From NCBI RefSeq assembly GCF_054482525.1, contig NZ_CM137006.1: a DNA stretch of 64,000 nucleotides. The stretch is one strand, 5' to 3'. The notes below the pieces were generated by a model. The model did not search any database. It was not told the origin of the DNA and saw only the letters and a list, made by a program, of their open reading frames with translations. Shown here piece after piece: positions 2,462-37,113 of this stretch. The translations under genes and the position numbers were made by a program. The stretch's first letter is position 1, and every line of letters starts with the position of its first letter.

Positions 2462-3193
2462 ATGAAAAAGTTAGTTCTTGCCGCTTTACTTGCTTCCTTT
2501 ACTTTCGGTGCTTCTGCCGCAGAGAAAATCAATTTTGGCGTTTCAGCCACCTATCCCCCCTTTGAATCTATAGGTGCTAATAATGAGATTGTCGGCTTTG
2601 ATATCGACCTGGCAAAAGCCTTGTGCAAACAAATGCAGGCAGAATGTACTTTTACTAATCACGCGTTCGACAGCCTGATCCCGTCACTGAAATTCAGAAA
2701 ATATGACGCCGTAATCTCCGGTATGGATATCACCCCGGAGCGTAGCAAACAGGTATCGTTTACCACGCCCTACTATGAAAACTCAGCCGTCGTGATTGCC
2801 AAAAAAGATACCTACAAAACGTTTGCCGATCTGAAAGGCAAACGTATTGGGATGGAAAACGGTACTACGCACCAGAAATATATTCAGGATCAGCACCCGG
2901 AAGTGAAAACTGTCTCCTATGACAGTTATCAGAATGCCTTTATCGATCTGAAAAATGGTCGTATTGATGGGGTATTTGGTGACACAGCGGTGGTTAATGA
3001 ATGGCTGAAAACCAACCCGCAACTGGGCGTTGCGACTGAAAAAGTGACCGATCCGCAATACTTCGGCACCGGCCTGGGTATCGCTGTACGTCCGGATAAC
3101 AAAGCTCTGCTGGAAAAACTGAATAACGCGCTGGCAGCAATTAAAGCTGACGGTACATATCAGAAAATCAATGACCAGTGGTTCCCACAGTAA
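2462..3193 (+). CDS. artJ: Arginine-binding periplasmic protein ArtJ
   Basis: ATG at 2462 (MKKLVLAALL...) gives 243 aa; paralog of ArtI; separate transcription unit after the artM terminator. Confidence 0.9.
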   Translation: MKKLVLAALLASFTFGASAAEKINFGVSATYPPFESIGANNEIVGFDIDLAKALCKQMQAECTFTNHAFDSLIPSLKFRKYDAVISGMDITPERSKQVSFTTPYYENSAVVIAKKDTYKTFADLKGKRIGMENGTTHQKYIQDQHPEVKTVSYDSYQNAFIDLKNGRIDGVFGDTAVVNEWLKTNPQLGVATEKVTDPQYFGTGLGIAVRPDNKALLEKLNNALAAIKADGTYQKINDQWFPQ

Positions 3194-11061: not shown

Positions 11062-11784
11062 TTAGCGCGTCGCCCAACCCTGTTTGTGCAAATAATCCAG
11101 TATAAATGGGCGGCTTTCTTTAATGATTGTTCGGCGGATATGATCGCTCCAGGTATCCCGGCGATTATTGCTGCCACGTGTGAGGTAATATTCCGCCAGT
11201 TGTTCGTCATACTGCGCCAGTGCGTCTTTATCCAGCGGTTGATAGTTGTTTTCATGCACCAAAATGGAGGCCGGTAAACGCGGCTTAAGATCCGGATTAT
11301 CCGCAGGCCAGCCAAGGCACAGCCCAAACAGCGGCAGAACATGCTGCGGTAATTTCAGCAGTTCCGTCACCGCTTCAATATTATTGCGCAGGCCGCCGAT
11401 ATATACCCCGCCCAATCCCAGCGATTCCGCTGCGGTTAACGCATTCTGCGCCATCATTGCTGTATCAACGACACCGAGCAACAGTTGCTCCGCCAGGCCA
11501 AGTTGTGCATCCGGACAGATCTGTAAATGGCGGTTAAAGTCGGCACAGAACACCCAGAACTCCGCCGCTTGCGCTACGTGTTTTTGCCCGCCGGTCAGCG
11601 TCACCAGTTCATCACGTAACGCTTTGTCGGTAATGCGAATAATGCTACTGCACTGCAAAAAACTGGAACTGGACGTCGCACGGGCGCTGTTAATAATCGC
11701 CTCACGCTGCGCTTCGGAAATGGGTTCATCAGTGAAATGGCGAATGGAGCGATGGCCACAAATAAGTTCAATGGTTGGCGTCAT
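11062..11784 (-). CDS. nfsA: Oxygen-insensitive NADPH nitroreductase NfsA
   Basis: 240-aa nitroreductase-family ORF. Confidence 0.9.
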   Translation of the reverse strand: MTPTIELICGHRSIRHFTDEPISEAQREAIINSARATSSSSFLQCSSIIRITDKALRDELVTLTGGQKHVAQAAEFWVFCADFNRHLQICPDAQLGLAEQLLLGVVDTAMMAQNALTAAESLGLGGVYIGGLRNNIEAVTELLKLPQHVLPLFGLCLGWPADNPDLKPRLPASILVHENNYQPLDKDALAQYDEQLAEYYLTRGSNNRRDTWSDHIRRTIIKESRPFILDYLHKQGWATR

Positions 11785-21004: not shown

Positions 21005-21716
21005 ATATCCTCCGGCATAGCCGGAGGTTTTTCAAATGCGCCTATAAGGCTCTCTTACCAGCCGCGCCCTAACAGGCGCACACGATCTGACATTTGCATC
21101 CAACTTCGTTACTTACGGCCCGTAAACGGGCTGCCCGGATAGGGAATCGATAACTGCTCTCCCATTTTATCCTCTTCAAGCTGGTGCTTTATGTAATCCT
21201 GTATCTTCGCCGTGTTCTTACCCACCGTATCGACGTAGTACCCTCTGCACCAGAACTCCCTGTTCCTGTATTTGAATTTCAAATCACCAAACTGCTCGTA
21301 AAGCATCAGACTGCTTTTCCCTTTCAGATATCCCATAAAGCCGGATACGCTCATTTTGGGCGGGATCTCCACAAGCATATGGATATGATCTGCACAGCAT
21401 TCAGCTTCCAGAATCCGTACACTTTTCCACTCACACAGCTTTCTCAAAATACTGCCTATTGCTCTACGCTTCTCTCTGTAGAACACCTGTCTTCGGTATT
21501 TTGGCGCAAAAACTATGTGATATTTACAGTTCCATCGGGTGTGCGCTAAGCTCTTTTCGTTCCCCATTGGGACCCCCTTTTGATTTCTTGTTTGACACTT
21601 GCAGTTGCCAGACCGCAAGGTGTTTTAACAAATCAAAAGGGGTTTTAATAACTGGCTTAAAGCTGAAAGCTTTCCGGAACCCCCAGCCTAGCTGGGGGTT
21701 TTCTGTGCACAATAAC
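21005..21716 (-). mobile_element. IS200 insertion sequence (IS200/IS605 family); ends approximate
   Basis: Encodes an IS200 TnpA; upstream of tnpA lie a perfect palindrome (aacccccagcctagctgggggtt, 21678-21699) and a second stem-loop over the ribosome-binding site; fills almost the whole deoR-dacC intergenic space. Confidence 0.8.
21109..21567 (-). CDS. tnpA: IS200 transposase TnpA (HUH/Y1 single-strand transposase)
   Basis: MGNEKSLAHTRWNCKYHIVFAPKYRR...HIHMLVEIPPK... 152 aa, intact. Confidence 0.92.
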   Translation of the reverse strand: MGNEKSLAHTRWNCKYHIVFAPKYRRQVFYREKRRAIGSILRKLCEWKSVRILEAECCADHIHMLVEIPPKMSVSGFMGYLKGKSSLMLYEQFGDLKFKYRNREFWCRGYYVDTVGKNTAKIQDYIKHQLEEDKMGEQLSIPYPGSPFTGRK

Positions 21717-34289: not shown

Positions 34290-36161
34290 TTATCTACGCA
34301 TGAATGCGTATTCTGATTGTGGTTGTGCGACGTAATGCCCCGGCCCGACGCATTGCAACGAGACGGCTGCAACCTCTTCGCCACGCAGATGAATATTGCT
34401 GGGAAGATCGTCCGACAGCAGTACACGCTGCGGTCGTTGTCGGGACGGTTCAGCGACCGGAACTGCCGCCAGTAATTTACGCGTATAAGGATGCTGCGGG
34501 TTTTCGAAGACCGCGCGCCGTGGACCAATTTCAACAATTTGTCCGAGATACATCACCGCCACACGATGACTAATCCGCTCTACCACGGCCATATCGTGGG
34601 AGATAAACAGATACGCAATGCCGAAATCACGCTGGAGATCGAGCAACAAGTTGATAATCTGCCCGCGAATAGATACATCCAGCGCCGAGACGGCTTCGTC
34701 GGCAATGATCACTTTCGGATTCAATGCCAACGCGCGAGCAATGCAGATGCGCTGGCGCTGACCGCCGGAAAACTCATGCGGGTAACGCCAGGCATGTTCA
34801 GGTAACAGGCCCACGCGCTCCAGCAACCACGCAACGCGTGCAGCCGCTTCTTTACCTGGCAATAAACCGTGTACGCGCAGCGGTTCGATAATCGAATCAC
34901 CGATGGTCTGACGTGGGTCCAGCGAAGCGTAAGGGTCCTGAAAAATAAACTGAATATCGCGGCGCAATGCCTGAAGTTTACCGGATGACAAGGTATCGAT
35001 TCGCTGACCGTTAAAGATAATTTCGCCGCCCTGCGATTCGACCAGGCGCAGCAACGCCCGCCCGGTAGTGGATTTACCGCTGCCAGACTCGCCCACCAGC
35101 GATAGCGTTTCGCCAGGCCAGAGATCAAAACTGACTTTCTCAACGGCATGCACTTCCCGCGTTACGCGATTCAACAAACCGCTGCGCAAAGGGAAACGGG
35201 TGACCAGATTACGCACCCGTAAAACAGGTTCGCCATCCACCACCGTTTTCTGCTCGATGGGTGGTTCCTGTTTCGCTGGATGTTCAAGCGATATCAATGG
35301 GAAACGTCGGGGATAATCTAACCCTTTCATCGCACCAAGTTGCGGAACAGCAGCTAACAGCGCACGGGTGTAAGGATGTTGCGGTGCATGAAAAATCTGT
35401 TCGACGGTACCCGTTTCCACCGCCTCGCCCTGATACATCACCAGTACCCGATCGGCAATCTCTGCCACCACGCCCATATCGTGAGTGATAAAGATAACGC
35501 CCATCGACATCTCTTTTTGCAATACTTTGATTAATTGCAGGATCTGCGCCTGAATAGTGACATCCAGCGCGGTGGTTGGCTCATCGACAATCAGCACCGC
35601 CGGGCGGCATGACAGTGCCATCGCAATCATCACTCGCTGGCGCATCCCGCCAGAGAGTTGATGCGGATAACGTGAAAGAATGGTTTGTGCCTCCGGAATG
35701 CGTACCTGATCCAGCATCCGCTTCGCCTCGACCATCGCCTCTTCACGACTGGCGTTCTGATGCAGACGAATTGATTCGGCAATCTGTTCACCCACAGTAA
35801 ATACCGGGTTCAGCGATGTCATCGGTTCCTGAAATATCATCGCCATATCCGCACCGCGCACATGGCGCATTTGTGCAGCGCTCTGCTCGATAAGTTCAAT
35901 CACTTCGCGACTGCGCCGCCGCAACAGCATTTTATCGCACTGTACTAAACCGCCCGCCTGTTCCAACAGACGCATCAATGCCAGCGCAGTCACTGACTTA
36001 CCGGAGCCGGATTCGCCAACAATTGCCAGCGTCTCACCGCGTTGCAGGCTAAAAGAGAGATTGCGGACCGCAGCTATTTTCTGCTGGTCCTGCATAAAGG
36101 CAATATTCAGATTTTCAACCGCCAGCACATCACCGGCATCAAGTTCATCACTGTGTGGCAA
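34290..36161 (-). CDS. gsiA: Glutathione ABC transporter ATP-binding protein GsiA (duplicated ABC domains)
   Basis: Two Walker A and two ABC signature motifs; 623 aa if initiated at TTG 36161 (no in-frame ATG nearby); start overlaps the iaaA 3' end. Confidence 0.85.
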
Positions 36162-37113
36162 CGGTGTCCCCTTTTTCACGGTAGATACCGGTGGTTGGCG
36201 TATCGCCTGCGTAGCCCCAGGCGCGATACATTCCTTCGGTGTTAAACGGTAGCGCGACGTTACCTTCATGGTCGATAGCGATTAAGCCACCGCTACCGCC
36301 AAGCGCAGGGAGTTTTTCCATTACTACCCGCTCGCAGGCTTCCGCGAGACTTAATCCGCCGTAATCCATTAACGCGGCGATGTCATATGCCGCCAGCGCG
36401 CGGATGAAGACTTCGCCCGTGCCGGTACATGAAACCGCCACACTGGCGTTATTGGCGTAGCATCCGGCCCCCACTAAGGGACTATCGCCAACTCGTCCGG
36501 GTAATTTATTGGTCATTCCGCCCGTGGACGTGGCTGCCGCCAGATTGCCGTCTAAATCCAACGCCACGGCCCCCACGGTGCCCATTTTCTGTTTTTCATC
36601 CAGTGGCGCACCGCTATGGTCGAGAACCATTGCCCCTTCCTCGCGCGCTGCCAGTAGTTGTTCATAACGCAAAGGCGTGGAGAAAATCTCCGGCGAGACG
36701 CGCTCCATGCCATGAGCAGACGCAAAATTTTCTGCCCCTTCGCCAATCATCATCACATGCGGGCTCTGCTCCATCACCAGCCGGGCGGCAAGAACCGGAT
36801 TACGCAGATGACTAACGCCCGCCACCGCACCGGCTTTCAGGGTGTTACCATCCATCACACAGGCGTCCAGTTCATGGGTTTCATCACGCGTAAAGACAGC
36901 GCCAATTCCGGCGTTAAACAGTGGACACTCTTCCAGCAGACGCACCGCTTCCGTCACCACATCCAGCGCACTTTCGCCCGCTTCCAGCATTTTCTGCCCG
37001 GTTTCAACAATGGCAGACAGCGCCTCGATGTAGCGTAATTCCTGTTGCAGACTCATCTGCGCGCGGCTAATTGCACCTGCGCCGCCATGAATTGCAATGA
37101 CTGCTTTGCCCAT
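36148..37113 (-). CDS. iaaA: Isoaspartyl dipeptidase / L-asparaginase IaaA (Ntn hydrolase)
   Basis: 321 aa; [13 protein letters not shown]... Ntn-hydrolase family. Confidence 0.9.

Follow-up and report, generated by a model that had tools for sequence, protein, structure and literature searches.

Initiation of gsiA

The gene gsiA very probably begins at a UUG codon (36161..36159) inside the 3' end of iaaA, where it is served by a Shine–Dalgarno (SD) sequence of its own; it is the second gene of the predicted operon iaaA-gsiABCD, and its translation is probably at most partially coupled to that of iaaA. The data show where the start lies, that an SD precedes it and that both are conserved across genera. 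The window, by which we mean the whole stretch of 64,000 nucleotides analysed, comes from an E. coli strain that is 99.99% identical to SCU-102. A TTG start within the 3' end of iaaA is already known, since it is the current reference annotation and is backed by published start-site mapping; we therefore regard it as ordinary, and the case matters very little beyond getting the annotation right. The features of the junction are listed here.

34290..36161, minus strand: gsiA coding sequence, 623 aa, predicted fused double ABC ATPase (from the ORF listing, arithmetic and RefSeq annotation)
36159..36161, minus strand: gsiA start codon TTG, read as fMet (from length, annotation, TetRP and orthologs)
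36167..36173, minus strand: gsiA SD sequence AAGGGGA, inside iaaA codons 314–316, with a 6-nt spacer to the TTG
36148..37113, minus strand: iaaA coding sequence, 321 aa, isoaspartyl dipeptidase / beta-aspartyl peptidase, TGA stop at 36150..36148
36148..36161, minus strand: dual-coding overlap of 14 nt, read as ..(G)TT GCC ACA CAG TGA in iaaA and as TTG CCA CAC AGT GA in gsiA
36172..36174, minus strand: iaaA codon 314, AAA, a TAA stop in most other Enterobacteriaceae
36126..36128, minus strand: rejected gsiA start GTG at codon 12, 612 aa, the 2006 K-12 annotation
36177..36179, minus strand: rejected gsiA start GTG, 18 nt upstream of the TTG, 629 aa
37192..37220, minus strand: promoter-like site TTTACA-17-TATATT upstream of iaaA, 10 of 12 matches, from a consensus scan only, in which the number of sites was not above shuffled expectation

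The two genes lie on the same strand and overlap, and the sequence-only reading of this DNA was right to place the start of gsiA 14 nt inside iaaA. The range 36148–36164 named in that reading comprises the overlap and one further gsiA codon. The in-frame candidates on the minus strand are ATG 36269 (659 aa), GTG 36179 (629 aa), TTG 36161 (623 aa), GTG 36128 (612 aa) and ATG 36095 (601 aa). The in-frame ATGs thus give 659 or 601 aa and none yields 623 aa, so that enumeration of the starts also upholds the earlier statement that a GsiA of this length has no matching ATG. The initiator tRNA reads UUG as fMet, and initiation from this codon is weaker than from AUG; UUG is rare here, being the start of only one of the 61 genes in the window.

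Pairing with the anti-SD sequence is stronger at the TTG than at any other in-frame candidate, at −7.8 kcal/mol compared with −1.5 to −4.9 kcal/mol for the rival start codons. This value is reached by 3.4% of the 5,921 NTG triplets in the window, as against 26% of its annotated starts. The coding sequence is further backed by the RefSeq annotation of a strain whose junction region is 100% identical.

Curated annotation and start-site mapping

In K-12 MG1655 (NC_000913.3 / U00096.3), gsiA (b0829, formerly yliA) is annotated at 867520..869391 with a TTG start, and iaaA ends at 867533. Comparison with this curated gene, which had been proposed as a check on the start, gave exactly the same TTG and the same 14-nt overlap with iaaA, together with the same SD and a 623-aa product; the only differences between the window and MG1655 are ordinary strain polymorphisms, such as D11 instead of N11. 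Four other RefSeq genomes (SCU-102, UTI89, O157:H7 TW14359 and Z1323HEC0067) carry the same annotated start, and of 5,425 E. coli genomes 5,129 match the junction segment with an identity of at least 99%.

The annotation has not always been so. The 2006 record placed the start of gsiA at a GTG 33 nt downstream, giving a protein of 612 aa (record BAA35517.2), and was revised in 2014. The sequence-only reading named a curated downstream start, ATG or GTG, as the result that would count against it; such a start did exist in 2006, but has been replaced by the TTG, and the reference annotation itself carried the wrong start until 2014. Counted by contig, the 623-aa form of GsiA is found on at least 1000, the 612-aa form on 12, and the 629-aa and 601-aa forms on three each.

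Published ribosome profiling, another check proposed earlier, agrees with the TTG. In the TetRP data of Nakahigashi 2016 (PMC4909307, Table S2), depth at the TTG is 46.3/140.5/70.6, compared with 0/0/2.98 at the 2006 start; gsiA is there listed as yliA in row 8, with a shift of −33 nt to TTG, in agreement with the 2014 re-annotation. Because the TTG sits within the iaaA coding sequence, part of the depth could come from ribosomes translating iaaA, and the authors of that paper raise the same kind of caveat for two other genes. The comparison site, the GTG at codon 12, falls outside iaaA. Some other genes in the Nakahigashi table have an N-terminal peptide, whereas for gsiA this column is blank; gsiA is absent from the TRAINSPOTTER supplements and, in the passage of the Nakahigashi paper on lacZ fusions that was examined, is not among the genes named. 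No peak at the gsiA start is present in Ribo-RET (the Meydan column of INRI-seq Table S2), where many genes lack peaks, or in the five in-vitro INRI-seq replicates, where missing peaks are also common. A literature search for the gsiA start codon and for the yliA/ybiK operon gave nothing useful.

Comparison of orthologous loci

The start was compared across approximately 80 orthologous loci, of which 28 species-level loci were used for the aligned codon, and iaaA stops were located by walking the reading frame. The codon aligned to the gsiA start is TTG in nine of the 28, GTG in 11 and ATG in eight, with an SD before each. In every genus examined, the SD (AAGGAG, AAGGGGG or GAGGAG) is found at the same position. 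Over gsiA codons 2–11, entropy is 1.41 at the third codon position, compared with 0.91 and 0.71 at the first and second. Residues 2–8 (PHSDELD) are conserved, with mostly third-position changes, also in genera that have no iaaA overlap there. As judged from these alignments, the comparison pins the start at the TTG independently of annotation, since the rival starts are either unconserved or cut off by stop codons.

GsiA itself is classed from its sequence with the peptide importers of the Opp/Dpp type, as a fused double ABC ATPase with oligopeptide-type C-terminal extensions. Its two nucleotide-binding domains match the structures of Rv1281c, DppD/F and OppD/F, its relatives carry PF00005 and PF08352, and gsiB, gsiC and gsiD follow it in the genome; our search found no solved structure of GsiA.

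Alternative start sites

It is very improbable that GsiA begins at the GTG of codon 12 (36128..36126) and is 612 aa long, as in the 2006 annotation of K-12 and W3110. This was the curated start until 2014, the shorter protein is still the one recorded on a dozen contigs, and it would keep an intact domain, because homology to the solved nucleotide-binding domains begins only at residues 9–13; for the same reason the domain boundary cannot separate this GTG from the TTG. The near absence of TetRP depth nevertheless argues against it, as does its weak SD (−4.9 kcal/mol in the window and −3.1 in K-12). The codon is moreover not conserved, since Escherichia sp. L006 and the Citrobacter loci L008 and L010 have GTA or GTT there, while the PHSDELD peptide upstream of it is conserved. 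A start further upstream within iaaA, at GTG 36179 or at ATG 36269, is scarcely credible. In E. coli both codons share the gsiA frame and no stop interrupts it, a few records have the 629-aa form, and ATG 36269 is the mechanical start of the longest ORF; but neither has an SD (−3.1 and −1.5 kcal/mol, respectively), GTG 36179 is GCG in Escherichia sp. L006 and E. albertii, and in other genera in-frame stops intervene. In Klebsiella, Enterobacter and Lelliottia these stops precede the gsiA start by 15–18 nt (a TGA at the position of GTG 36179 in the last two, a TAA 15 nt before the start in Klebsiella), and in L011 and Salmonella by 33–51 nt. The TetRP screen, which extended over 60 nt upstream, picked the TTG; ATG 36269 lies outside this range and is thus excluded on comparative grounds only. 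For gsiA, both the longest ORF and the nearest stronger-looking start are wrong.

There is likewise very little to recommend two proteoforms, in which the 623-aa protein from the TTG would be accompanied by a shorter one from the GTG of codon 12 or the ATG of codon 23 (36095). The TetRP study did find dual starts in a number of E. coli genes, and there are a few records of the 601-aa form. The ATG of codon 23 is conserved because it belongs to a conserved peptide, FMQDQQKI. The scant TetRP signal at codon 12 speaks against the first of these secondary starts; the second lacks an SD in the 20 nt before it and would cost the protein the first β-strand of the ABC domain, whose alignment begins at residue 12. 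Neither has a peak in Ribo-RET or INRI-seq.

Possible coupling of gsiA to iaaA

The sequence-only reading took the overlap to imply translational coupling within iaaA-gsiABCD. The overlap does not establish this; gene overlap by itself is no proof of coupling, especially at −14 nt. Coupling has been reported to drop steeply with longer overlaps, from −4 in the direction of −25 nt, and spacings of −8 to +10 nt alone are treated as predictive of termination–reinitiation, the best being −4 to +3 nt (Huber et al. 2019, 2023; review PMC12548453). The iaaA–gsiA stop–start spacing of −14 nt is outside the efficient range. The coupled pairs of Huber et al. resemble iaaA–gsiA in that they are co-directional, the SD of the second gene lies within the first, and stop and start are close together; however, they typically overlap by 4, 1 or 8 nt rather than by 14.

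In E. coli, a 10-bp helix formed by 36193..36184 with 36140..36131 encloses the SD and start of gsiA, with z = −2.2 in the window and −1.7 in K-12. The helix is not conserved: z ranges from −0.1 to +0.8 in five of six other genera and is −0.9 in Leclercia. It is approximately zero in E. albertii, Citrobacter, Enterobacter and Superficieibacter, and in Citrobacter the two arms are not complementary. A conserved masking RNA structure over the gsiA start was rejected on this basis, the helix being absent as a conserved feature in the six other genera.

We consider it unlikely that coupling is obligatory, such that the TTG would be used only after termination at the iaaA TGA, or once ribosomes on iaaA have unfolded a masking structure. 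The 14-nt overlap with the SD inside iaaA would fit obligatory coupling, as would the E. coli helix and the consensus scan, which found no promoter-like site inside iaaA, although the scan is weak evidence either way. The spacing of stop and start also stays between about −14 and +22 nt in almost every Enterobacterales locus that has iaaA, and an isolated gsiA fragment gives no initiation peak in vitro, whereas TetRP gives a signal in vivo. Yet the spacing falls where the reported coupling efficiency is strongly reduced, the helix is not conserved, and peaks are often missing in INRI-seq. IaaA and GsiA are not known to belong to a common complex, which we counted against obligatory coupling. 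The same start and SD persist, moreover, in lineages with no iaaA upstream, namely Salmonella arizonae and S. bongori, in which iaaA has shrunk to a remnant of approximately 40 nt, Enterobacter sp. L011 and Kosakonia L018. In approximately 297 O157:H7-type genomes, iaaA carries a Q116* stop 604 nt upstream, and in the one inspected, TW14359, gsiA is annotated as intact.

The evidence favours a gsiA whose initiation would be largely independent and SD-driven, with partial coupling at most. As the second gene of the predicted iaaA-gsiABCD operon, gsiA would be translated from the UUG by way of its own SD, which is embedded with its 6-nt spacer in the last codons of iaaA. Ribosomes that end iaaA translation 11 nt past the first base of the UUG may add some re-initiation.

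Origin of the overlap

The sequence at the iaaA junction is CGN GAA AAA in Escherichia and Citrobacter, whereas it is GAA TAA in Leclercia, Enterobacter, Lelliottia, Phytobacter, Superficieibacter, Pseudocitrobacter, Siccibacter, Salmonella and Klebsiella. This distribution provides good support for a stop-loss in Escherichia and Citrobacter, in which TAA became AAA at codon 314 of iaaA. The change would have shifted iaaA termination from approximately 13 nt before the gsiA start to its present place, 11 nt past the first base of the TTG. The eight-codon tail of IaaA (KGDTVATQ) and the overlap would both follow from loss of this stop. The overlap is most simply seen as a derived accident, in which iaaA reads eight codons further and so enters gsiA.

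The first T of the TTG is the second position of iaaA codon 318 (Val318). A change of the start to ATG would consequently give V318D in IaaA, and a change to GTG would give V318G; by this position the overlap weakly constrains the start codon of gsiA. A weak start codon (TTG or GTG) is found at the gsiA site in two thirds of the genera examined. There is a small chance that the recent, lineage-specific overlap and the weak start together represent a selected way of keeping GsiA synthesis low or of altering its dependence on iaaA. Within the same window, ybjC and nfsA form another co-directional overlap, at 11768..11784 on the minus strand, of 17 nt and so likewise longer than 8 nt; here the downstream gene, nfsA, starts at ATG, unlike gsiA with its TTG. 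The presence of this second pair within the same 64 kb makes co-directional overlaps of more than 8 nt unremarkable in E. coli.

The start codon of gsiA

The gene for the fused double ABC ATPase GsiA follows iaaA (isoaspartyl dipeptidase/beta-aspartyl peptidase), and its reading frame offers several candidate starts:

37113..36148, minus strand: iaaA, 321 residues, with stop codon TGA at 36150..36148
to 34290, minus strand: end of the gsiA reading frame in the ORF listing
36269, minus strand: ATG, in-frame candidate start, 659 residues (the mechanical ORF)
36179, minus strand: GTG, in-frame candidate start, 629 residues
36173..36167, minus strand: AAGGGGA, the gsiA Shine-Dalgarno (SD) sequence, with a 6-nt spacer before the TTG
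36161..36159, minus strand: TTG, in-frame candidate start, 623 residues
36148..36161, minus strand: iaaA/gsiA overlap, 14 nt
36128, minus strand: GTG, in-frame candidate start, 612 residues
36095, minus strand: ATG, in-frame candidate start, 601 residues

The sequence-only reading had placed the start at the TTG, 14 nt inside the 3' end of iaaA, because no ATG gives a 623-residue protein. The lengths of the in-frame candidates bear out this arithmetic, and the overlap is as described. The predicted anti-SD pairing is −7.8 kcal/mol at the TTG. Of the window's 5,921 NTG triplets, just 3.4% attain this value, as against 26% of annotated starts; the rivals reach −4.9 (GTG 36128), −3.1 (GTG 36179) and −1.5 kcal/mol (ATG 36269).

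The same TTG is the curated start in K-12 MG1655 (NC_000913.3; iaaA 866568..867533, gsiA 867520..869391), where the codon at 867520 lies in a sequence context identical to the window. PGAP places the start identically in SCU-102, whose junction region is 100% identical to the window, and in UTI89, O157:H7 TW14359 and Z1323HEC0067. By exact-sequence look-up, the 623-residue K-12 protein occurs on at least 1000 contigs and is named GsiA by NCBI and UniRef; variants of 612 residues (BAA35517.2 among them), 629 and 601 residues occur on 12, 3 and 3 contigs respectively.

Experimental support comes from tetracycline ribosome profiling (TetRP; Nakahigashi et al., 2016, PMC4909307). In Table S2 of that paper, row 8 gives yliA (now gsiA) a new initiation site at 866743 with codon TTG, shifted −33 nt from the 2006 start and differing by 0 from the 2014 annotation. 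A downstream GTG (612 residues), the curated start that had been named as fatal to the TTG, was therefore in use until 2014, and has since been superseded by the TTG. TetRP depth in the three samples was 46.3, 140.5 and 70.6 at the TTG, compared with 0, 0 and 2.98 at the 2006 start. As the TTG lies within the iaaA coding sequence, some of this depth could stem from ribosomes translating iaaA, a type of problem that the authors flag for two other genes. According to the paper, the 2014 re-annotation moved 95 starts within its search range, and TetRP agrees with 63 of them. Table S2 gives no N-terminal peptide for gsiA, which is also not named in the paper's passage on genes tested by lacZ fusion, and no gsiA entry was found in a 2026 N-terminomics data set. 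In INRI-seq Table S2, gsiA is without a peak in 5 of 5 in vitro replicates and in the Meydan 2019 Ribo-RET column; peaks are missing there for many genes. The TTG start is correct, yet it was already annotated and already backed by a published genome-wide experiment.

Conservation of the start

We compared 80 orthologous loci from GTDB species representatives, together with Salmonella arizonae, S. bongori and Klebsiella michiganensis. In most of these loci, from Enterobacterales through Burkholderiales, iaaA lies directly upstream of gsiA. The aligned start codon is TTG in 9 cases (Escherichia coli, Escherichia sp. L006, E. albertii, three Citrobacter species, Superficieibacter, Pseudocitrobacter and K. 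michiganensis), GTG in 11 (two Salmonella species, Enterobacter, Lelliottia, Phytobacter, Kosakonia, Siccibacter, Pluralibacter gergoviae and others) and ATG in 8 (Leclercia, Pluralibacter sp., Cedecea and relatives, Rahnella, Serratia oryzae and Pantoea sp. 1.19). It always stands 5–11 nt after AAGGAG, AAGGGGG or GAGGAG. Variation confined to Leu, Val and Met start codons, always behind an SD, is what marks a start codon.

Downstream, GsiA residues 2–8 (PHSDELD) are conserved and substitutions gather at third positions (mean column entropy 0.91, 0.71 and 1.41 for codon positions 1, 2 and 3), also in genera where iaaA does not overlap this stretch. Among 5,425 complete E. coli genomes, 5,129 match the 63-nt junction segment at 99% identity or more.

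Other starts were rejected. In L006 and E. albertii, GTG 36179 is replaced by GCG, and in Enterobacter and Lelliottia its position is an in-frame TGA; in Klebsiella, an in-frame TAA lies 15 nt upstream of the TTG of that genus. In place of GTG 36128, L006 and two Citrobacter species have GTA or GTT.

The iaaA-gsiA order is kept far beyond Enterobacterales (loci L041–L085: Burkholderiales, Rhizobiales and others), including Achromobacter, Bordetella, Paraburkholderia, Variovorax, Cupriavidus and Methylobacterium. In these loci, gaps of about 20–130 nt mostly separate the two genes, gsiA usually begins with ATG, and GsiA has a longer, unrelated N-terminus.

Origin of the overlap and rarity of the start codon

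In Leclercia, Enterobacter, Lelliottia, Phytobacter, Superficieibacter, Pseudocitrobacter, Siccibacter, Salmonella and Klebsiella, iaaA ends in Y-R-E-TAA, 12–14 nt before the gsiA start, and the TAA forms part of the gsiA SD (TAAGGAG). In Escherichia and Citrobacter that codon (36174..36172) is AAA, which gives iaaA 8 extra codons (KGDTVATQ), ending at a TGA inside gsiA. The overlap is thus most simply a derived by-product of stop-codon loss. Because the TTG begins at the second position of iaaA codon 318, ATG in its place would give Val318Asp and GTG Val318Gly. These genera may have kept TTG because of this mild constraint from dual coding, or because a weak start is preferred; the data favour neither.

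The rare feature is the TTG start; gene overlap is routine. The 61 coding sequences of the homologous 64-kb SCU-102 stretch start with ATG (54), GTG (6) and TTG (gsiA only). Among its same-strand neighbour pairs, 8 of 36 overlap, by 1 nt (three), 4 nt (three), 14 nt (iaaA-gsiA) and 17 nt (ybjC-nfsA), and according to the review literature as many as a third of the genes in prokaryotes overlap, chiefly by a few bases. The ybjC-nfsA pair is likewise co-directional in the window, with a longer overlap:

11768..11784, minus strand: ybjC/nfsA overlap, 17 nt (nfsA ATG 11784..11782, ybjC TGA 11770..11768)

Translational coupling of iaaA and gsiA

The overlap had been taken to imply translational coupling, which is plausible although the geometry is unfavourable. 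The only candidate masking structure is a helix that brackets the SD and start codon in E. coli:

36193..36184 with 36140..36131, minus strand: 10-bp helix, CACCGGUAUC pairing with GAUGCCGGUG

Coupling of gsiA translation to that of iaaA would fit the position of the gsiA SD inside the overlapping iaaA, the finding of no promoter-like site within iaaA, and the proximity of iaaA stop and gsiA start in nearly all Enterobacterales loci with iaaA; moreover, the start is detected in vivo in the TetRP table and not on an isolated fragment in vitro by INRI-seq. However, published coupling efficiency is best at spacings of −4 to +3 nt, drops steeply as spacing becomes more negative and is nil at −25 nt, and Huber et al. 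took only −8 to +10 nt as predictive, compared with the 14-nt overlap here. The helix has z = −2.2 in E. coli but is missing from E. albertii, Citrobacter, Leclercia, Enterobacter and Superficieibacter (z −0.9 to +0.8), and K-12 loses its outermost pair through the N11 polymorphism. The start and SD are also retained in S. arizonae and S. bongori, where only a 3' remnant of iaaA of about 40 nt survives, and in Enterobacter sp. L011 and Kosakonia L018, which have no iaaA upstream. In the O157:H7 lineage, iaaA is interrupted by Q116*, which lies 604 nt before the gsiA TTG; gsiA is annotated as intact in TW14359, the one such genome inspected. Strict dependence of gsiA on iaaA translation is thus unlikely; we read gsiA initiation as SD-driven and independent at a weak codon, with coupling at most partial.

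Lineages with altered iaaA

The TW14359 nonsense change is CAA to TAA, and PGAP calls this iaaA a pseudogene with an internal stop:

36766..36768, minus strand: iaaA codon 116 (2683..2685 in the TW14359 locus, L004)

Among 5,426 complete E. coli genomes, 297 have an identical copy of a 63-nt segment with the nonsense allele; the matches listed are O157:H7 or O157-like in appearance. This lineage offers a natural experiment on polarity or coupling onto gsiABCD.

In S. enterica subsp. arizonae (LR134150, L086 1252..1500) and S. bongori (LR134137, L087), there is no iaaA between moeA and gsiA; the remnant reads ..ggaatttaccgggaaTAAggag.. and gsiA has GTG at the aligned codon. In both assemblies, gsiA is fragmented into several calls, which probably reflects frameshift errors in the long reads.

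A 345-residue gene call (P0008) in one NCBI E. coli genome of 5.08 Mb is 97% identical to the GsiA N-terminus and carries PF01112 (Asparaginase_2, the IaaA family) and PF00005, which suggests an iaaA-gsiA fusion call, perhaps from a frameshift at the overlap.

Elsewhere, the window, otherwise 99.99% identical to SCU-102, has a 706-nt insertion (21005..21710) between deoR and dacC. Many E. coli genomes carry copies of IS200C (IS200/IS605-family tnpA) that match it at 100% identity, in up to 35 places per genome.
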